Shown: positions 18,024 to 26,514 of the stretch, in pieces
How the letters are laid out: each line of letters starts with the position of its first letter
Numbering within the stretch: position 1 is the stretch's first letter
Origin: an uncultured bacterium
Lineage (GTDB): Bacteria > Bacillota_I > Bacilli_A > RFN20 > CAG-826
NCBI GenBank assembly: GCA_949292105.1
Contig: CASEYK010000018.1
Coordinates: 5,134-69,133 of the forward strand
DNA length: 64,000 nucleotides
Direction: 5' to 3'
Notes under the pieces: generated by a model
Told to the model about the DNA's origin: nothing
Seen by the model: only the letters and a program-made list of their open reading frames with translations
Database searches by the model: none
Translations under genes and position numbers: made by a program

Positions 18024-19782
18024 TAAAGTTAAGGCTCTTATCACCAATCTTAAGCATTTGCCCGGCGTTTATCTAATGCATAACGCGAAAGATGAAATTA
18101 TTTATATTGGCAAAGCCAAAGATTTATATAACCGCGTCAGCCAATATTTTTTAAGACCACAAGCTGGCAAAGTGGCCAAAATGGTTTTTGATGTCGATTA
18201 TTTTGAAACTATTATCACTAAAACTGAAAAAGAAGCACTGATATTAGAGATGAATCTTATTCAGACACATTATCCTAAATACAATATTCTTTTAAAAGAC
18301 GACAGCCATTATCCATATATTGCTCTTCATAAAAAAGGCGATCCGTTCTTGACGATTAAAAGAAATAACAAAGACCGCAATTACGATTATTTTGGTCCTT
18401 TTCCAAGCGGCAAAAGCGCACGAGGAACAATTGAACTTTTAAATAAAATTTTTCCTTTAAGAAAATGCTCTCCTTTAAAAAAGGAACCTTGCTTATATTA
18501 CCATTTAGGGCAATGTTTGGCTCCTTGTATTAAACCCGTCGATAGCAGTGTATATGAAACTATTGTTGAACAAATCAAAAGATTTTTTAAAGGCGATAGC
18601 ACCACAATCAAAAGAGAATATGAGAAAAAAATGCTTGATGCTTCTAGCGAACAAAAATATGAGCTAGCGGCTGAATATAAGAAAATAGTCGATTATATCG
18701 AACATATTAGTGCCGCTCAAAATGTTGAAAGCAACGACCATAAAGATTATGATGTGTTCGCCTATGCTACTCGAGACAATTATCTCGCTTTATCAGTCAT
18801 TGTATATCGCGATGGAATGGTTTTAGGCAAAAATAGTTTCGTTGTCGAACGGTTTGATGAACTAGGCGAACAAGTTCAAGATTTAATACTTCAGTATTAT
18901 CAAAAACATACAACGCCTGTTGAAATTGTCATTAATGATGAAAACGTCATCGCTTTATTAAGCGATTATTTGGATAGCCGAATTGAAAGCGTTACACGTG
19001 GACATCGTTTTGAACTAGTTTCTATGGCGCTCGAAAACGCTCAAAATGCTTTGGATGAATATTATCTAAGCCCGAGAATTGACGAAAATAAAATTGCTCT
19101 TTTGGAAGAACTAGGACAAATATTAAATATTGATACTCCTCTGCGCATTGAACTGTTTGATAATTCCCATTTGCAAGGCTCTAACCCCGTTGGAGCGGTG
19201 GTGACATTTATTAATGGCGAACCAGCCAAGTCGCTATATCGAAAATATCATATTGAGTGGAGCGAAGGAAAAGATGATTTAAAGTCGATGAAAGAAGTTG
19301 TTTGGAGACGCTATAAAAGGATGAAAGAAGAAAATAAAACCTTCCCATCCCTTATTTTGCTCGATGGTGGTCTAAACCAAATCAACGCTGCTAAAGAAGC
19401 CTTGAACGATCTAGATGTCAGCATCCCTATTTATGGACTTTATAAAAATGATAAACACCAAACTGAAGGTATTATCGATGAATATGGACAAAAATATAAA
19501 ATTGAGAATAAATCATTATTTTTCATGTTGACAAGAATGCAAGATGAAGTACATCGATTTGCTATTTCATTTCATCGATCACTAAGAGATAAAAGTTTCA
19601 AAAACTCTATTCTCGATGGTGTTAAAGGTTTGGGTGAAAAAAGAAAAGAAATAATTCTAAGAAATTATCAGGATATTAAAACATTAAAAAACGCCAGTGT
19701 CGAAGAGTTAAAACAATTTTTGCCTGTTGATGTCGCTTTATCTCTTTATCAATCACTTCATAACGATGATGAAAACAATTGA
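18016..19782 (+). CDS. uvrC: excinuclease ABC subunit C
   Basis: GIY-YIG N-terminus (GVYLMHNAKDEIIYIGKAKDL), UvrC and RNase H-like domains and a C-terminal HhH. The start overlaps the end of mutS2 by 8 nt. Confidence 0.95.
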   Translation: MNNKVKALITNLKHLPGVYLMHNAKDEIIYIGKAKDLYNRVSQYFLRPQAGKVAKMVFDVDYFETIITKTEKEALILEMNLIQTHYPKYNILLKDDSHYPYIALHKKGDPFLTIKRNNKDRNYDYFGPFPSGKSARGTIELLNKIFPLRKCSPLKKEPCLYYHLGQCLAPCIKPVDSSVYETIVEQIKRFFKGDSTTIKREYEKKMLDASSEQKYELAAEYKKIVDYIEHISAAQNVESNDHKDYDVFAYATRDNYLALSVIVYRDGMVLGKNSFVVERFDELGEQVQDLILQYYQKHTTPVEIVINDENVIALLSDYLDSRIESVTRGHRFELVSMALENAQNALDEYYLSPRIDENKIALLEELGQILNIDTPLRIELFDNSHLQGSNPVGAVVTFINGEPAKSLYRKYHIEWSEGKDDLKSMKEVVWRRYKRMKEENKTFPSLILLDGGLNQINAAKEALNDLDVSIPIYGLYKNDKHQTEGIIDEYGQKYKIENKSLFFMLTRMQDEVHRFAISFHRSLRDKSFKNSILDGVKGLGEKRKEIILRNYQDIKTLKNASVEELKQFLPVDVALSLYQSLHNDDENN

Positions 19783-19823
19783 AAACATTTTCACACTTGT
19801 TTAATATATTAAATGCTACATAT

Positions 19824-19900
19824 ACCCTCGTAGCTCAGTTGGATAGAGCAACAGCCTTCTAAGCTGTGGGTCAGGCGTTCGAGTCGCCTCGAGGGTGCCA
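19824..19900 (+). tRNA. tRNA-Arg (anticodon UCU)
   Basis: The cloverleaf was folded by hand: acceptor ACCCTCG/CGAGGGT, D-arm GCTC-AGTTGGATA-GAGC, anticodon stem ACAGC/GCTGT with loop CTTCTAA, T-arm AGGCG-TTCGAGT-CGCCT, discriminator G and an encoded CCA. Confidence 0.9.
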
Positions 19901-19915
19901 TTGAAAATACTGAGA

Positions 19916-19940
19916 CAGTCTGTCACGCAGGCTGTTTTTA
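19916..19940 (+). terminator. terminator after tRNA-Arg
   Basis: cagtctg-tcacg-caggctg hairpin followed by ttttta. Confidence 0.5.
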
Positions 19941-19957
19941 TTATCTTAAGATAATAA
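19938..19957. repeat. 20-bp perfect palindrome TTATTATCTTAAGATAATAA
   Basis: Exact reverse-complement symmetry, located between the tRNA terminator and the promoter of the nuclease gene. Confidence 0.8.
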
Positions 19958-19977
19958 TATAGCCAAAATCAACTAAA

Positions 19978-19990
19978 TATTGTCTCACAA
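19978..19990 (+). repeat. 13-bp motif TATTGTCTCACAA, copy A; overlaps the -35 of the nuclease promoter
   Basis: Near-identical copies occur at 21694-21706 and 21736-21748. Confidence 0.7.
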
Positions 19991-20009
19991 AACATAAATG
20001 TTATATAAT
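19980..20009 (+). promoter_or_regulatory. promoter of the restriction-endonuclease-like gene
   Basis: -35 TTGTCT (19980-19985), 18-nt spacer, -10 TATAAT (20004-20009). The ATG at 20016 lies ~7 nt downstream, so the transcript would be leaderless. Confidence 0.45.
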
Positions 20010-20015
20010 ACATTT

Positions 20016-21062
20016 ATGATGGAAAAAACCACAACAGAAAGCATTATCAAATATTTTCACTACCATAAAGGCGAAGTTTTTGAAGTAGATATCCTACATA
20101 AAAGAAAGTTTTCTGATATCAACTATGATTCTTTTAGAAAATTGGTATCCAGAATTTCAAATCGTGGCGAAGAATTAACGCATTTAGGTTTTAGCCTTTA
20201 TTACATCGGAAAAGCAAATGAAATGATGCTAGATGACATTGTCTTTAATTATTTTGTTCAAAAGATTAAAGTTGAACTCAATATTTTAAATTCGCTCATT
20301 GGCTCTAAAAATATCGAAGAAGAATTCAAATCTATCGTTAATCAATATCCTAATGTTTTGGTCGTGGTACCAATTCTTTTAGCAAAAAGAGAAGCTGAAA
20401 TTAAAGTACAAGATGCTGACGGTAGTTATGTTTTTAACTTTGTTAAAATGAACTATACAGTCGACCAATATACTCTTTTCATGAGAAATAGCGGTCTATT
20501 TGATTTATTACAAAACCACATCATTAATAACCTAGTCGATTATGTTTTAGGTATTGAAGTCGGAATGGACACTAACGGAAGAAAAAATAGAACAGGTCAT
20601 GTTATGGAAGACCTAGTTGAATCCTACCTCATTAAAGCTGGTTTAGTTAAGGGCAAGACATATTTCAAAGAAATGTGTGCTTCTGATGTCGAAAAGAAGT
20701 TCCATTTAGATTTATCTAAACTAAGCAACGATGGTAAAGCAGAAAAGAGATTTGACTTTGTGTTTGTTGGTGCATTAGGGACTGTTTTCGCCTGTGAATG
20801 TAATTTCTACAGCGGAGGCGGTTCGAAACTAAACGAAACTGCTAGAAGTTACAAAACATTAACTGAAGAATCAAGAGAAATAACAGGATTCCAATTCGTT
20901 TGGTTTACAGATGGAATTGGCTGGAATAGTGCAAAGCACAATTTGGAAGAAACATTTGACGTGTTGGAAAACCTTTACAACTTGCACGATTTAGAAAATG
21001 AAGCAATTAATCAATTGATTGATCCAACGAGATATTTAAATAAACTTTTAACTAATAAATAA
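20016..21062 (+). CDS. DpnII/MboI-family type II restriction endonuclease homolog with a ~55-aa N-terminal extension and no adjacent methyltransferase
   Basis: Motifs LNILNSLIGSKNI, GIEVGMDTNGRKNRTGHVMED and CNFYSGGGSKLNETARSYK, recognised from memory as the DpnII family (Pfam PF04556 type). The ATG at 19998 used in the ORF track lies inside the promoter spacer and is rejected. Confidence 0.5.
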   Translation: MMEKTTTESIIKYFHYHKGEVFEVDILHKRKFSDINYDSFRKLVSRISNRGEELTHLGFSLYYIGKANEMMLDDIVFNYFVQKIKVELNILNSLIGSKNIEEEFKSIVNQYPNVLVVVPILLAKREAEIKVQDADGSYVFNFVKMNYTVDQYTLFMRNSGLFDLLQNHIINNLVDYVLGIEVGMDTNGRKNRTGHVMEDLVESYLIKAGLVKGKTYFKEMCASDVEKKFHLDLSKLSNDGKAEKRFDFVFVGALGTVFACECNFYSGGGSKLNETARSYKTLTEESREITGFQFVWFTDGIGWNSAKHNLEETFDVLENLYNLHDLENEAINQLIDPTRYLNKLLTNK

Positions 21063-21073
21063 CGGAGGCTTGT

Positions 21074-21673
21074 ATGGCACTTATAAAATGTCCTGAATGT
21101 GGGAAAGATGTGAGCACTGCTGCAGATGTATGTCCGCACTGTGGCTACCCCATTAAAAAAGAATCTAAGGTTAAACCTGAAGAAAAACCAAACGAGAACT
21201 ATCCAAAGCCAAAAAATACCGCTTGGGTTGAAAAATGGAAAAGCAAGGCAAAGGCTACTAGATGGAAATGGACGCTTTTGTTTCTTGGTTCCTTAGTTCT
21301 TCTTGCGGTCTTTATAATTTTATTATGTACAGATAAAGAAGTTACTTCTTATGGTACATACTCAAAAACCGTTTGGATAATTATGGTTGGTATTTCATCA
21401 TTTATTGCATTTATTATGTTTACGCTATGGCTGGTTGCTTTAATTACAATCAGAGTTCGCGCTAGACAATATGATGGTTATACAGTTCTAGTATATGTCA
21501 GCTTTAATCATTGCTTAGTAGTTGAAGATGAAGTTCAAGATTCAGGATTTGTTAATAGATTTCTTTATGGCCAACTTCCTAACAAAAAGCAAGTATGGGT
21601 TAACATATCTGCATGGGATGGATCTGTTAAAATGGGCATCGGTAAAGAAGGCGACGAAAAGAATCTAATTTAG
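21074..21673 (+). CDS. zinc-ribbon transmembrane protein (CPxCG...CPHCG, K-rich linker, 2 TM helices, ~75-aa C-terminal domain)
   Basis: GGAGG RBS and a 12-nt gap after the nuclease gene indicate translational coupling. Confidence 0.6.
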   Translation: MALIKCPECGKDVSTAADVCPHCGYPIKKESKVKPEEKPNENYPKPKNTAWVEKWKSKAKATRWKWTLLFLGSLVLLAVFIILLCTDKEVTSYGTYSKTVWIIMVGISSFIAFIMFTLWLVALITIRVRARQYDGYTVLVYVSFNHCLVVEDEVQDSGFVNRFLYGQLPNKKQVWVNISAWDGSVKMGIGKEGDEKNLI

Positions 21674-21693
21674 TAAAAATGCCAAAAACATTG

Positions 21694-21706
21694 TATTATC
21701 TCACAT
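21694..21706 (+). repeat. 13-bp motif TATTATCTCACAT, copy B
   Basis: Direct repeat of copy A, differing by 1-2 mismatches. Confidence 0.7.
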
Positions 21707-21735
21707 AAAATAATTTATTTTTGAAGAAAGATTGG

Positions 21736-21748
21736 TATTATCTCACAA
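21736..21748 (+). repeat. 13-bp motif TATTATCTCACAA, copy C
   Basis: Direct repeat located 42 bp after copy B. Confidence 0.7.
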
Positions 21749-21773
21749 ATTTAAAGACATTTCATGTAAATAA

Positions 21774-21798
21774 CCATTTCGTGCCGAAGTGGTTTTTT
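21774..21798 (+). terminator. rho-independent terminator of the nuclease/zinc-ribbon operon
   Basis: ccatttcg-tgc-cgaagtgg hairpin followed by tttttt. Confidence 0.55.
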
Positions 21799-21939
21799 AA
21801 AAACATAATGCTTGGCTCTTTTTATTACGTTGTTGCACTTATTTCAGTTAATACCTTATGTCTTTAAATTAGCCAATGGAATTACGATTGAAACCAAAAA
21901 ACTTAACCAAGTAATATTAAATTAAGTGAGGCTCTAAAT

Positions 21940-22347
21940 ATGGATGAAATAAAATGTCCTAAATGCGGAAAAGTATTAACAGATAATGAAAAAGAGAAAA
22001 AAATTTGTCAAGAATGTGGTTGTTTGTTTGAAATTATTGATTCTAAAAAAGGGAAAAAGTCTGAAGCCGTTAGCGCCATCATTAAAGATTATAGAAAAAT
22101 AAATTACAAATCTTGGATTAAGTTCTATATTTTCTTCTTATTCTTGTGGTCAATCTTAACTATCTTTGGAGTGTTACAAGGCTATGTCCACACATCAAAT
22201 CCATGGAATTGGATTATCTTGGTTGTAGGAGTGGTAGTTTACATTATTGTGTTTATCTTAATTCAATTTCAAATAAATGTTATAAGAGATATTTATATGT
22301 TAAAAATTAAAGTTGAAAAATTAGAAAATAAGAATGACAACGAATAA
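21940..22347 (+). CDS. zinc-ribbon (CPKCG...CQECG) two-TM membrane protein
   Basis: GAGG RBS. Same architecture as 21074..21673 but without the C-terminal domain. Confidence 0.55.
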   Translation: MDEIKCPKCGKVLTDNEKEKKICQECGCLFEIIDSKKGKKSEAVSAIIKDYRKINYKSWIKFYIFFLFLWSILTIFGVLQGYVHTSNPWNWIILVVGVVVYIIVFILIQFQINVIRDIYMLKIKVEKLENKNDNE

Positions 22348-22475
22348 TCATGCAAGAGTGTGAAGTTGTAGAAACAAGGAATTCTAAAGATGCTAACTAA
22401 TAAAACATTCAAATAAAAACATTAAACAAGTAACTCAAAAGTCTTTTCAAAGACCAAATTACTATTGTTAACTTA

Positions 22476-22700
22476 ATGTTGGAAATAATTTGGAAGATGA
22501 TAGCCTTGTATCCAGAAATAGGACAATATCTCCCGGCACCAGACATGGATCAAGTTTTAAGCGGGAAGACGAACAATCCTTTCTATGTTCTTTGCATTCA
22601 TATTATTGGGATACATTGTTCAAGAATCATCTTTTTAGATGATATTAAAAGAGTAAAACTAGAAAACAGCACTGACTATCAAAAAGAATTGATGGAATAA
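22476..22700 (+). CDS. hypothetical 74-aa ORF, possibly a gene remnant
   Basis: Isolated ORF in an AT-rich intergenic stretch with no recognisable motifs and a weak ribosome-binding site. Confidence 0.2.
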   Translation: MLEIIWKMIALYPEIGQYLPAPDMDQVLSGKTNNPFYVLCIHIIGIHCSRIIFLDDIKRVKLENSTDYQKELME

Positions 22701-22973
22701 ATATTATAAGTTTAATCAACAAGCATTATCAAATTTTAAAAGCTACGGAAAATAAAAAGAGCACTGAGAATTTTGAATGTTATTATAAAACTTTTAGTTA
22801 TTAATTTGACTAATTTTATTTAGAAAGCAATATATACAATAGTATTACAACGCATCAAATAAGCAGCAATTTTTTGTAGTATCAAATGTTTTTATACAAT
22901 TGCTTGGCAAATATCTGTAATCGTGAAAACATAATGCACATTTAGTTAATAAAATTAAGGATGCATAATAATG

Positions 22974-23024
22974 TTATCTCCAAAAAAATGTTATATTTCT
23001 TTAAATTTATCTCCAAAAAAATGT
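22974..23024 (+). repeat. two perfect 18-bp direct repeats TTATCTCCAAAAAAATGT (22974-22991 and 23007-23024) upstream of the ATPase gene
   Basis: Exact duplication 33 bp apart. The repeats sit inside a possible 43-codon upstream ORF (22971..23102) that has an LSPKKC repeat. Confidence 0.7.
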
Positions 23025-23082
23025 AAAATATTGTATGAAAACTTCACAAATGTTAAGATAAAAGTGATTAATGAGGCGATGT

Positions 23083-24381
23083 ATGGAAAGAAAAATATAT
23101 GATAAGCTCTTAAACTGGAAAAAATCATTACATAGAAAACCTTTAGTGTTACAAGGCGCTAGACAAGTTGGAAAAACTTATATAGTTAATCTGTTTGGGC
23201 AAAAAGAATATGAAAACTATGTTTATTGCAATTTCGAAAAAGAACCTATTTTAGAAGATTTTTTTAACGAGCTTAATCCAAATAAAATTATTAGAAATCT
23301 CAGTATTTATAAGCATAAAGAAATTATTTCAAACCATACCTTACTAATTTTTGATGAAATTCAAGCATCACCAAAAGCTTTAAATTCTCTGAAATATTTT
23401 AATGAAGAAGCCAAAGAATATCATATCATTGCTTTGGGATCTCTATTGGGTGTATCTCTAAATAGAGAAAATTCCTCTTTTCCAGTTGGACAAGTCGAGA
23501 TGATGACAATGTATCCGATGGATTTTGAAGAATTTTTAATTGCGGTTGGTAATGATACATCTAAACTGAGTTTAGAAATTAAAAATGCCTATAAAAATGA
23601 TACTGCTTTGCCTGCTGGTCTTCATGAGTTAGCTATTTCACTATACAAGAAGTATTTGTATGTTGGCGGAATGCCAGAAGCTGTAAAAGTTTTTGTTGAG
23701 ACGAACAATCCTGAAATGGTTAGAATTGTTCAACTCGCAATTCTCGATGCCTATTTTAGCGACATGAGCAAGTATAATAGAACGACTGAAATACCCAAAA
23801 CAAAATTAGTTTTTGAAAATATATCGACACAGCTTTCTAAGGAAAACAAAAAATTTCAATATAAATATTTAAAAAGCGGAGCGAGGTCATCACAGTATGC
23901 CGAAGCGATAAAGTGGGTTTGTAGTGCTGGCATTGCAAATCAATTATTTAAATTAGAAAAAGTAACTTTACCACTTGAATCAAATAAATCTAATGATGAT
24001 TTTAAATTTTATATGAGCGATGTTGGTTTATTATGTGCTAGTCAAAATATACGCATTGAAGATATTGAATTAGACCTCAATGATTCATCTTTTCGTGGTG
24101 GATTATGTGAAAACTATGTCTTCAATCAATTAACATTTGCTGGGCTCAAACCATATTACTGGACTAGTAATTTTGATGCCGAAATAGATTTTATCATTAG
24201 GTTAGGAATGGATATCATTCCCATTGAAGTTAAGTCTGGAGAAAATACTCGATCGAAGAGTTTGAATGTGTATATGAAGAGTATGAACCCGCCATACGCA
24301 ATTAGAATATCTCAAAAGAATTTTGGATTCGAAAATAATATTAAGTCCGTTCCATTGTATGCCGTTTATTGTATTAAATAA
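23083..24381 (+). CDS. COG1373-type AAA+ ATPase (AAA_14 N-domain plus DUF4143 nuclease-like C-domain)
   Basis: Walker A GARQVGKT, Walker B LLIFDEIQ and the C-terminal DFIIRLG...IPIEVKSG motif. The start is taken at ATG 23083 with an upstream GAGG. Confidence 0.7.
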   Translation: MERKIYDKLLNWKKSLHRKPLVLQGARQVGKTYIVNLFGQKEYENYVYCNFEKEPILEDFFNELNPNKIIRNLSIYKHKEIISNHTLLIFDEIQASPKALNSLKYFNEEAKEYHIIALGSLLGVSLNRENSSFPVGQVEMMTMYPMDFEEFLIAVGNDTSKLSLEIKNAYKNDTALPAGLHELAISLYKKYLYVGGMPEAVKVFVETNNPEMVRIVQLAILDAYFSDMSKYNRTTEIPKTKLVFENISTQLSKENKKFQYKYLKSGARSSQYAEAIKWVCSAGIANQLFKLEKVTLPLESNKSNDDFKFYMSDVGLLCASQNIRIEDIELDLNDSSFRGGLCENYVFNQLTFAGLKPYYWTSNFDAEIDFIIRLGMDIIPIEVKSGENTRSKSLNVYMKSMNPPYAIRISQKNFGFENNIKSVPLYAVYCIK

Positions 24382-24549
24382 CATCAGTTGCAGTTTGAAA
24401 AATAATTGACAAAATAATAAAGTGAAACGCAATTATTAAAACATAAGTTGTTTGAATAGTTAAAAAATTACAAAAATATGATAGTAAAATATTCCTTCAA
24501 AAATATAAAATATCTTATAGATATTAAAAATGGATAACGGGAGTTAGTT

Positions 24550-25440
24550 ATGAATGTTATTAGAAAAAATCTAGGCTATGCATTATTTACAGCTTTTTGT
24601 GTCTTGTTTGCGGTTTATTTTATTTATGATTTAACACAAATCAGTGATGCGTTAGATGTCGAAGGTTCAAATTTACCGATGATTTTATTGATTATCGACA
24701 TTCTTGCGTGCTTGATAATGATTTCAATATCAGCTGATGGATTATTAAGAACAAATAAAGAAGATGAAAGAAAAATATTAATTTGTTGTGTCTTTCTCGG
24801 GCTTGTTTATTCATTCGCAAATGCGTTAGGAACAATCGTGACAATGACTGAGATGCAAAATCTTTATAATAATGTGGGTATTCAAATTCATTGGCCAGCT
24901 GAAACTATCATGACATTAATATTTTTGATTTTTGGTTTTGTTGCGTTATTGTTCGGGGCGATATTGAATTATGAGAATAACCTAAAAATGAAAAAAGGAT
25001 TTATTATTGCAGGAATTGGTTGTATTTTTATCGCGCTTATCATTGCACTAGCAAACAGTGGCTCATCTCAAACAACTTTTCAAGTTATAATAGGTGTTTT
25101 TCAAATAATATTAATGATTTGTCTTGGCACTTATGTATTGTTTATCAATTGTTTTAACAATAATGCAGATGAAAAAATCAAAATATGTTCATTCTGTGGC
25201 TCCGAAGTTCAATCTGATAAACTGTACTGTGATAAATGTGGGCATAAAATGGATGCAGTCACAACAGCAGTAAAAAGCAAAAACAACAATTACTCAAATA
25301 AACAAAAGATATCCACATCTAAACTAGATCAAGAAGAAGCAGAAGACTCTTTGAGAAGGTTGAAACAAATGCTTGATGAGAAAATAATTACTGAAGAAGA
25401 ATATAATGAAAAGCGAAAGAAATATATCGATAGGCTTTAA
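24550..25440 (+). CDS. polytopic membrane protein (~6 TM) with a zinc ribbon (CSFCG...CDKCG) and a C-terminal SHOCT-like tail
   Basis: The hydrophobic N-terminal two thirds predict about six TM helices. The C-terminus reads LRRLKQMLDEKIITEEEYNEKRKKYI. Confidence 0.5.
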   Translation: MNVIRKNLGYALFTAFCVLFAVYFIYDLTQISDALDVEGSNLPMILLIIDILACLIMISISADGLLRTNKEDERKILICCVFLGLVYSFANALGTIVTMTEMQNLYNNVGIQIHWPAETIMTLIFLIFGFVALLFGAILNYENNLKMKKGFIIAGIGCIFIALIIALANSGSSQTTFQVIIGVFQIILMICLGTYVLFINCFNNNADEKIKICSFCGSEVQSDKLYCDKCGHKMDAVTTAVKSKNNNYSNKQKISTSKLDQEEAEDSLRRLKQMLDEKIITEEEYNEKRKKYIDRL

Positions 25441-25525
25441 TAATGTTTGTGAAATATTGATTAAATTATAAATAGTTGAGATTACTATAAAACTACTAAA
25501 AATCTACCAAATGCATTGATATTAT

Positions 25526-26416
25526 ATGGACAAAATTGATACTTTACTAGAAAAAGGCAACTACGAGTTAGTTCTTAAAATAACGAAAAATAGCGATGAT
25601 ATTAAATATCTTTTTTATCGTCTTGCCGCTTTTGTCGCACTTGAAAAATATGAAGACGCCCTAGCCCTCATCAATAGCAAAAAATCAATCATGGAGCAAG
25701 ATTTGCGTTTGCTCATTAAAACGCATATCAATATTTTATGTGTACTAGAAAGATTTGATGAAGCATACGATGCAGCGAAAGATTACGCTGAACTTCCATA
25801 TCATTCGCAAGAAGTGGAAGAAATTCTTAAAGAATTACCACATCGTATTAGAAATGAAGAAAAAAAAGTTTTAGGCAAAAAGAAACTGAGCGAAGAAGAA
25901 ATGCGTAAAATTCTTTTAAGCGAACAAAATGATGAAAGATTGCTCGGAATTCTTCAAAAAATCGATCGAATTGAAAAATATCTTCCCGAATTAGAGAATT
26001 TGCTTGTTGCATATCCGCATTTATCGATTCGCGTCTTTATACTTTTAACACTAGTTAAAGTTAAGGTTAATGGACCGATTAAATTTAAAAATAGTCGTGA
26101 CGAGATTCAAGAAGTGTGTCCGCAAGTCTTACATGAGCCTTTCTCGTCGACCATCGATAGAGAAATTTCCAACCGCATTAATAAATACGACGATCCGACG
26201 GTGGCAAGCGTTGCTCATCAAATATTTTCTTCTTATGTCCTCTTTGTTTATCCTGAGTATATCACAAGTGATATTGATATTTTATATCAATCTCTTATCT
26301 TACTATCTAAAAAATACCTAGCAATCAATCTTAATAATACTGAACAAGAACTGTCAAACAATCCAGCGATTAGCGAATGCATATCATCGCTTGAAAAAGC
26401 ATTAAAAAATATCTAA
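25526..26416 (+). CDS. hypothetical alpha-helical (TPR-like) protein
   Basis: 296-aa ORF with no recognisable catalytic motifs. Confidence 0.35.
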   Translation: MDKIDTLLEKGNYELVLKITKNSDDIKYLFYRLAAFVALEKYEDALALINSKKSIMEQDLRLLIKTHINILCVLERFDEAYDAAKDYAELPYHSQEVEEILKELPHRIRNEEKKVLGKKKLSEEEMRKILLSEQNDERLLGILQKIDRIEKYLPELENLLVAYPHLSIRVFILLTLVKVKVNGPIKFKNSRDEIQEVCPQVLHEPFSSTIDREISNRINKYDDPTVASVAHQIFSSYVLFVYPEYITSDIDILYQSLILLSKKYLAINLNNTEQELSNNPAISECISSLEKALKNI

Positions 26417-26445
26417 TTTTCAACTAAATAAAGGGCGGAAAATGC

Positions 26446-26470
26446 ATCTTGCTTGCAAGATTTTTATTTT
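26446..26470 (+). terminator. rho-independent terminator
   Basis: atcttg-cttg-caagat hairpin followed by ttttatttt. Confidence 0.6.
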
Positions 26471-26514
26471 ATAGTAAAATAATCACTGCATGCATTTGTT
26501 ACGGAGGTAAAAAA

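Follow-up and report, generated by a model that had tools for sequence, protein, structure and literature searches.

A two-layer, strain-variable defence islet at a tRNA-Arg(UCU) gene in an uncultured CAG-826 bacterium

PDC-S01 is classed as a single-gene candidate defence system (PMC12988326) and has been described as the most frequent single defence locus of rumen genomes (PMC13356809) and as the fourth most common defence over all prokaryotes, with validation still pending (PMC12988326). DpnII/MboI-type restriction–modification (R-M) systems, the other close counterpart of the locus described here, are canonically arranged as a controller helix-turn-helix (HTH) gene, a Dam-type methyltransferase (MethyltransfD12), an N6_N4 methyltransferase (N6_N4_Mtase) and the endonuclease, and these cassettes are often trailed by other defence genes. 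A member of the former and a remnant of the latter occur in a 5.6-kb block of low-GC DNA that lies between a tRNA-Arg(UCU) gene and the core genes orf296 and tig, in a 64,000-nt stretch (hereafter the window) from an uncultured bacterium of the GTDB lineage Bacillota_I; Bacilli_A; RFN20; CAG-826 (GenBank assembly GCA_949292105.1, contig CASEYK010000018.1, positions 5,134–69,133, forward strand). An initial annotation, made from the sequence alone, had singled out this block as the most plausible seat of a novel defence or toxin-like system. We find it to be an ordinary strain-variable defence islet, a two-layer patchwork of known kinds and not a new system: its sole clearly intact defence-like gene belongs to the abundant, known candidate family PDC-S01, its restriction endonuclease is a truncated chimera without methyltransferases, and its two small zinc-ribbon genes (ZnR1 and ZnR2) are frameshifted in some strains. 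The history that we favour, and regard as probable, is that of a variable slot filled by an ATPase gene and a membrane-protein gene under selection and later, in one haplotype, by an island whose R-M system was disarmed.

An accessory block in a variable slot

Using Tig as the query in a scan of one genome per species, we collected 80 related loci, the closest of which come from uncultured gut and rumen 'Bacilli' metagenome-assembled genomes (MAGs; Tig identities of 78%, 66% and 58%), and compared the window proteins with them by tblastn. The five block proteins gave zero matches across the 80 loci. The block is accessory, as had been proposed; the same gene set does not lie between uvrC and tig in these relatives. 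The core flanks, mutS2–uvrC on the left and tig–lon–engB–valS on the right, are conserved (tblastn).

The left anchor of the slot is tRNA-Arg(TCT) (19824–19900; like all features of the slot and its anchors described below, on the + strand). ARAGORN and Rfam (RF00005, 66.5 bits) agree on a single such gene at this locus, which bears out the initial placement of the block directly after a tRNA-Arg. The tRNA is immediately followed by a hairpin and T run (19912–19938), recognized by a consensus scan and by reading the sequence, that resembles a terminator and may act as one. The right anchor is orf296 (25526–26416; 296 amino acids (aa)), which adjoins tig. By tblastn, it stands immediately 5′ of tig in nearly every relative, with identities down to 27% (matches beside tig in L001–L003, L005–L008, L010–L017, L019, L021–L023, L027 and L034), and we therefore assign orf296 to the core, outside the island. 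The right edge had first been placed approximately 1 kb too far, beyond this gene; the accessory block is 19901–25525 (5.6 kb). No Pfam family matches orf296 at threshold and there are only weak TPR-like hints; it is a fast-evolving core gene (nonsynonymous-to-synonymous ratio (pN/pS) of ~0.25 between the two haplotypes described below) that is nonetheless positionally conserved.

In 14 related loci tRNA-Arg(TCT) lies downstream of uvrC, and the order uvrC–tRNA-Arg(TCT)–X–orf296–tig is kept in 12 of the 80, with fillers X that differ and span 0.76 to 6.5 kb. The slot holds a DNA-alkylation-repair-like gene in L002 (0.76 kb), an acyltransferase in L007 and L008 (~1.1 kb), a HAD hydrolase and a lipoprotein in five loci (L016, L021–L023 and L034; 1.5 kb), the same two genes plus SPFH and zinc-ribbon proteins in L015 and L017 (4.4 kb), and all of these together with a YhcG-type nuclease in L019 (6.5 kb). 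A sister clade gained a conserved pair in the slot—a double-zinc-ribbon SPFH/Band-7 protein and a 440-aa zinc-ribbon protein (4877–7531 in L015 and L017; 4802–7469 in L019, in which the nuclease is of the YhcG/DUF1016 type). The interval from tRNA-Arg to orf296 is an old, lineage-wide variable site with contents that change from relative to relative, and the block within it was acquired horizontally.

The GC content is 0.299 in 19901–25525 and 0.376 in the rest of the window (z = −5.3), and no other stretch of that length in the 64 kb is as low, which substantiates the high AT content noted at the outset. GC at third codon positions (GC3) deviates far less: it is 0.24–0.28 in the block genes and 0.27 in neighbouring mutS2 and uvrC, and non-coding DNA, together with the amino-acid composition of the proteins, therefore accounts for much of the GC deficit. 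The open reading frames (ORFs) and long gaps were as first listed. One gap (21674–21939) separates the two zinc-ribbon ORFs and the other (22348–23070) holds just one 74-aa ORF without a family match.

The block shares with tRNA-linked islands its position at a tRNA 3′ end, its low GC, its variability between strains and genera and its defence-flavoured cargo; a winged-helix/XRE module related to the one from which part of the block derives also heads a tRNA-adjacent island in the related locus L102. In contrast to such islands, it has no integrase or repeat of the tRNA 3′ end, and in sister genera the slot contains ordinary metabolic and membrane genes. Domain scans of the block ORFs turned up neither integrase nor transposase domains, and a search of the window for a second copy of the 24-nt tRNA 3′ end, with up to three mismatches allowed, found none and hence no attR, in agreement with the initial annotation. 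Direct and inverted repeats between 19.7 and 26.6 kb amounted to chance-level pairs and one tandem 18-mer upstream of the ATPase gene; a 17-nt repeat pair (20039/22721) is within chance for AT-rich DNA, for which we estimate approximately one expected pair. Rfam, at E-values up to 1, returned the tRNA alone in a search for non-coding RNA in the block gaps, and promoter and terminator counts equalled those expected by chance. A possible shared operator (ATTGT.TCTCACAWAA) upstream of the chimeric ORF and after ZnR1 was rejected, its occurrence not exceeding the shuffle expectation.

Two haplotypes, two layers and a conserved ATPase

The window arrangement (haplotype A) is present in contigs from at least nine samples, found by exact look-ups of ZnR1 and ZnR2, at 99.4–99.97% identity; samples containing the species include ERZ16268187, ERZ16268077 and SRR32105375. 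A second arrangement (haplotype B; contigs L088–L090) is 93–95% identical to the window and aligns from 22681 rightwards only (blastn breakpoint, window 22681 = L088 8142), sharing the non-coding leader of the ATPase gene, the ATPase gene, the SHOCT gene, orf296, tig and onward. Left of the breakpoint, the gene content of haplotype B is different over at least 8.1 kb and consists of the C-terminal part of a GmrSD gene, a NADAR gene of the PDC-M42C type, a fragment of a serine recombinase that scores below threshold, and several unknowns. The block therefore consists of a right layer (22681–25525) that is common to both haplotypes and a left layer (19901–22680) that occurs in one haplotype only; its two halves have different population histories and are not one unit.

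In L088 (Logan SRR32105375_5328), the GmrSD fragment comprises 126 aa (102–1067; Pfam 1.7e-8), with split, sub-threshold serine-recombinase pieces beside it on the opposite strand, followed by the NADAR gene matching PDC-M42C and approximately six ORFs without a family; the cargo of haplotype B, too, includes gene wreckage. A shared ancestral DpnII–GmrSD cassette behind both haplotypes was considered and rejected, given that the GmrSD fragment of haplotype B shows no similarity to the GmrSDs near intact DpnII cassettes.

Synonymous diversity (pS) of the flanking core genes in haplotype A contigs ranges from 0.2 to 7%, and the density of single-nucleotide polymorphisms (SNPs) peaks in the 3′ half of uvrC, at 23.0–23.5 kb and in orf296. 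We counted 66 variable sites in the 1.5 kb of 18500–19999 (uvrC 3′ half), 15 per 500 nt at 23000–23499 (start of the ATPase gene) and 21 per kb at 25500–26499 (orf296), and mostly 0–8 per 500 nt elsewhere. These peaks look like recombination tracts flanking the island modules.

The right layer opens with the ATPase leader (22681–23070), which is non-coding in both haplotypes and contains two tandem copies of TTATCTCCAAAAAAATGT (22972–23026; repeat D2) 45–100 nt upstream of the ATPase start. The pair is conserved in haplotype B and may be an operator for a regulator. The ATPase gene (23071–24381) encodes a COG1373-type protein with AAA_14 and DUF4143 domains (PF13173, 1e-27; PF13635, 2e-30; both above cut-offs). 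PADLOC, which returned PDC-S01 and REase_II matches in the block, aligns PDLC04786 to residues 5–436, the full length of the protein, at 2.9e-164, making the gene a candidate single-gene defence of the PDC-S01 type. Its catalytic motifs are intact: GARQVGKT (Walker A) at residue 29, LLIFDE (Walker B) at residue 91 and D...EVK in the C-terminal domain. DUF4143 has been placed in the PD-(D/E)xK superfamily (PMC3424549). With P-loop and PD-(D/E)xK-like motifs in place, the protein shows no architectural difference from PDC-S01, a family that is itself a candidate antiviral and experimentally unvalidated (PMC12988326). Because of these domains and the enrichment of the family in defence contexts, we consider the ATPase to be most likely a stand-alone NTP-driven nucleic-acid sensor or nuclease directed against invading DNA.

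The second gene of the right layer (24550–25440) encodes a membrane protein with approximately six transmembrane (TM) helices (hydropathy), a cytoplasmic CxxC...CxxC zinc ribbon (residues 213–230; also matched by Pfam zinc-ribbon families) and a C-terminal SHOCT domain (PF09851, residues 266–291), the last a marginal assignment at 28.1 bits against a cut-off of 27. Homologues are limited to two clusters (89% identity) among 5.8 billion proteins, both from the same locus and carried by the haplotype B contigs L088–L090; the protein is species-restricted. Between haplotypes A and B, the SHOCT protein has a pN/pS of ~0.21 and the ATPase one of ~0.12, indicating purifying selection on the right layer. 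The early characterization of the block as an old or degraded island is fair for the left layer.

The ATPase and the SHOCT protein might also form a species-specific two-gene module, in which a sensor ATPase/nuclease is paired with a membrane effector or anchor. SHOCT-tailed and TM proteins are common partners in defence loci, and the two genes are adjacent, on the same strand and under purifying selection in both haplotypes. This arrangement would be compatible with the history that we favour, but we think it unlikely: a 168-nt gap separates the genes, the other PDC-S01 homologues that we found have unrelated neighbours, the presence of the SHOCT protein in one species only precludes a test of co-variation, and PDC-S01 is classed as a single-gene candidate (PMC12988326).

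A truncated DpnII-family gene fused in frame to a winged-helix fragment

The left layer begins with an ORF (19998–21062; start at ATG 19998 or, more likely, at 20016/20019) that had been listed as a restriction-endonuclease homologue. The DpnII-family match is real, but the gene has lost its 5′ end, in place of which a fragment of a different gene is joined to it in frame. The N-terminal part derives from the 5′ region and first ~79–86 codons of a winged-helix gene (19901–20255), and the remainder consists of the 3′ 268 codons of a DpnII-family (GATC-type) gene (20256–21062), the first 32 codons of which are absent.

In the endonuclease part, Pfam PF04556 matches at 3e-92, with residues 87–338 covering model positions 29–277 of 278, and PADLOC REase_II matches at 1e-88. 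The best 120 of 8000 homologues align solely to residues 87–354, at 85–94% protein identity, and nearly all of these canonical enzymes are 298–300 aa long. Their N-terminus, MANRDFNxWLSTMKDSIATWTYYTDFxKVYEN, is nearly invariant (30–119 homologues) and corresponds to Pfam model positions 1–28; it is lacking in the window protein, which leaves those positions unmatched. At the DNA level, identity with canonical genes is 82–85%, starts sharply at 20255 and ends near the stop codon. The junction (20255/20256) reads ...AAT TAT TTT/GTT CAA AAG..., with ~1 nt of microhomology. The chimeric ORF thus does not encode a complete DpnII-family endonuclease domain.

The surroundings also differ from those of intact systems. 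Residues 87–354 are ~90% identical to the endonucleases of intact cassettes in gut Bacilli and Acholeplasmatales-like MAGs. In the window, by contrast, ~80 winged-helix residues replace the first 32 endonuclease residues, the controller and both methyltransferase genes are absent upstream, where the tRNA and the gene fragment lie instead, and the downstream genes differ too. No adjacent cognate GATC methyltransferase was found, and no ORF with an N6-methyltransferase DPPY-type (motif IV) context is present in the 64-kb window. Endonuclease activity of the chimeric ORF has probably been lost.

Exact look-up of the chimera returned no record, because the window carries private SNPs; neither the chimera nor the ATPase had a match in PDB sequence searches, and matches of the block in phage and plasmid collections were limited to weak ones to the endonuclease part. 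In an AlphaFold model of a canonical endonuclease, built with the role of the missing N-terminus in mind, confidence is low in that region: the predicted local distance difference test (pLDDT) score falls below 50 at residues 1–4 and 13–34 (block means of 38–50), with a mean of 68.5 overall. One 453-aa DpnII-family protein (P0001; ENA contig of 1857 nt) has its first ~150 residues internally duplicated, the cause being a tandem duplication or else an error of assembly. The haplotype A contig L100 (ENA ERZ16268256 scaffold_19299) starts (position 1) at window 20256, exactly at the chimera junction; this may mark an assembly-graph branch at which a variant with other DNA upstream, perhaps an intact R-M cassette, is also present in the sample. 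Across the whole window (1–64000), four-base palindromes are strongly avoided (observed/expected of 0.22 for ACGT (18 versus 82.6), 0.49 for GATC, 0.60 for CATG and 0.63 for AGCT), which suggests long-term ACGT- and GATC-specific restriction pressure on the lineage.

The donor of the N-terminal part was traced with phmmer against 1.84 billion representatives, which recovered 13 relatives of residues 1–86, each matching at its own N-terminus (best, P0123; 51% identity, E = 1e-15) and mostly 212–230 aa long. Window 19899–20205 is 74% identical in DNA to L103 675–980, a likeness that reaches into the upstream non-coding DNA. Elsewhere the intact winged-helix gene encodes ~215–230 aa; the full-length copies in L102 and L103 overlap, on their downstream side, an XRE-type HTH gene (HTH_3). 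The L102 pair comes immediately after tRNA-Ala/tRNA-Met and heads an island that also carries a resolvase, leucine-rich-repeat proteins and a type I R-M system. The L102 gene call (P0130; 7905–8825; ENA ERZ27302752 k141_815340) crosses tRNA-Met and includes the peptide ...CRGFESPLSHH...; its true start is Met-61.

AlphaFold modelled the fragment with a pLDDT of 88 and an H-b-H-H-b-b winged-helix topology, and it is predicted to be a complete winged helix. A fold search with this model gave generic winged-helix domains only among PDB matches, at E-values above 0.04, and a profile of the winged-helix family gave chance-level matches only against PDB sequences (best E = 0.1). The fragment has no Pfam family—a lone OSK match is at chance level (E = 0.079; 12.6 bits against a cut-off of 27)—and a word-based search with the 86 aa gave no match. 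The donor family shares a winged-helix N-terminus with AbiE type IV toxin–antitoxin and DUF6088 proteins, and two of its members have sub-threshold matches to AbiEi_4 (E = 0.0025) and DUF6088 (E = 0.004), with scores of 17–18 bits against a cut-off of 25. However, the AbiEii nucleotidyltransferase is absent from the block, intact relatives carry an XRE HTH partner instead, and only the fragment is present here. Given the sub-threshold scores, we do not assign the fragment to AbiE.

The rest of the left layer consists of two zinc-ribbon genes and mostly non-coding DNA. ZnR1 (21074–21673) has an N-terminal CxxC...CxxC zinc ribbon, two predicted TM helices and a C-terminal region without a family (Pfam, hydropathy). 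ZnR2 (21940–22347) is a shorter paralogue with a zinc ribbon, matched weakly by Pfam zinc-ribbon families, and two TM helices (hydropathy); the DNA of the 5′ ends of the two genes is shared (repeat D5). The end of the layer (22348–22680) is mostly non-coding, with a 74-aa ORF (22476–22700) that has no homologues. The proteins resemble TcaA/YvbJ-like small Firmicutes zinc-ribbon membrane proteins in having an N-terminal CxxC...CxxC ribbon followed by TM helices, but the likeness is confined to the ~30-residue ribbon and the protein bodies have no relatives in the scanned collections: matches to the N-terminus of the NCBIfam TcaA model score 21.1 and 18.8 bits, far below its cut-off of 550, and ZnR1 found only 30-residue zinc-ribbon matches, with no full-length relatives, in Joint Genome Institute (JGI) metagenomes and IMG/VR. 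A PHROGs scan of the block matched only the zinc ribbon, SHOCT and the nuclease domain.

Both genes are broken in some strains, ZnR1 by an 11-nt insertion in L100 and ZnR2 by a 1-nt deletion at 22267 in L092 and L094 that shortens it to 111 aa. Within haplotype A, the left-layer ORFs contain 5 SNPs, all nonsynonymous, with 0 synonymous changes over ~412 synonymous sites; 4 of these SNPs, likewise all nonsynonymous, fall in the chimeric ORF. The chimeric ORF, ZnR1 and ZnR2 are probably dispensable and beginning to decay. We infer, from numbers that are small, that the left layer spread recently, is weakly constrained and moves between strain backgrounds through recombination in the flanks.

Proposed history and what the islet means

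In the favoured history, the slot would first have been filled by the PDC-S01 ATPase gene and the lineage-specific membrane-protein gene, which were kept by selection and became fixed in the species. Later, in one haplotype, a small island with an R-M system would have entered the slot. A single deletion or illegitimate join with ~1 nt of microhomology would then have linked approximately codon 86 of the winged-helix gene to codon 33 of the endonuclease gene. The same step would have cost the island 32 endonuclease codons, the two methylase genes and the controller of the R-M system, and what remained of the winged-helix/XRE module. An addictive R-M system could thereby have been lost without killing the cell, leaving behind the chimeric ORF and two decaying zinc-ribbon genes. 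The slot would have been reshuffled among strains probably by homologous recombination in the flanking core genes and not by a resident integrase.

Several points weigh against this history. The chimeric ORF is open in all nine of the contigs that cover it, and its endonuclease part carries 0 private substitutions at columns that are at least 97% conserved among 119 homologues; the fusion is therefore either very recent or still constrained, with SNP counts too few to decide. The methyltransferase negative covers 64 kb, and such a gene may lie elsewhere in the genome. The window-wide depletion of GATC speaks of long exposure to GATC restriction and is silent on how things stand now. Neither an empty site nor the left junction of haplotype B was seen in the contigs found, many contigs come from one study series (ERZ162682xx) and their strains are possibly epidemiologically related, and the defence role of PDC-S01 is itself a candidate one, its validation pending (PMC12988326).

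A functional chimera could be a solitary GATC endonuclease guarded by a Dam-type methylase elsewhere, or a nuclease or DNA binder retargeted by the winged helix and under selection. Such a protein would fit with the in-frame fusion, the ORF intact in every contig and the unchanged conserved columns, with retention of the entire PD-(D/E)xK-bearing C-terminal part, with an N-terminal fragment predicted at high pLDDT to be a complete winged helix and with the avoidance of GATC in the genome. We nevertheless consider it improbable. The family hardly varies at the 32 missing residues, which the Pfam model includes, and all four polymorphisms in the ORF are nonsynonymous. No other lineage showed this architecture—of 8000 homologues, the top 120 are ~300 aa long, save P0001, and the word search with the N-terminal part was empty. 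Moreover, neighbouring genes are frameshifted in some strains, haplotype B lives without the chimera and there is no methyltransferase in the 64 kb. We give a slim chance to the block holding either an active winged-helix–DpnII nuclease (with a new targeting domain or a distant Dam) or a two-component, membrane-coupled ATPase–SHOCT defence module.

We regard it as very improbable that the entire 5.6-kb block works as a unit, as a novel defence or toxin system of several genes in which the ATPase and the nuclease act together with three zinc-ribbon membrane proteins. All genes are on the same strand, the zinc ribbon recurs in three membrane proteins, and defence islands are home to both the ATPase and the restriction-endonuclease family, whose genes are found close together in L081 and L082. 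That reading is largely refuted by haplotype B, which keeps the ATPase and SHOCT genes with wholly different upstream genes. We also rejected the linkage in L081 and L082 as a counterpart, their ATPase being only 26% identical; in addition, the gene set was not found together elsewhere (80 loci; protein, JGI metagenome and IMG/VR scans), frameshifts interrupt ZnR1 and ZnR2 in some strains and long non-coding gaps separate the genes. That the block is core DNA of merely odd composition is refuted: its GC3 is similar to that of mutS2 and uvrC, but no related genus has the block, a conspecific haplotype is without its left half and its GC is the lowest of all equal-sized windows.

The favoured history makes an ordinary islet of a block that had been flagged as the possible home of a new defence system, and the value of this result is mainly one of clean-up. 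The slot at tRNA-Arg(UCU) persists over several uncultured gut and rumen Bacilli genera, with a different cargo in each. In this species, it offers an example of a PDC-S01 gene that is fixed and under purifying selection, and it illustrates how one step may rid a cell of an addictive DpnII-type R-M system and leave a chimeric ORF, in frame, behind. Such an ORF would be labelled a 'type II restriction endonuclease' by annotation pipelines, a warning for censuses of defence systems that a PADLOC or Pfam match as strong as 1e-88 can sit on a truncated orphan.

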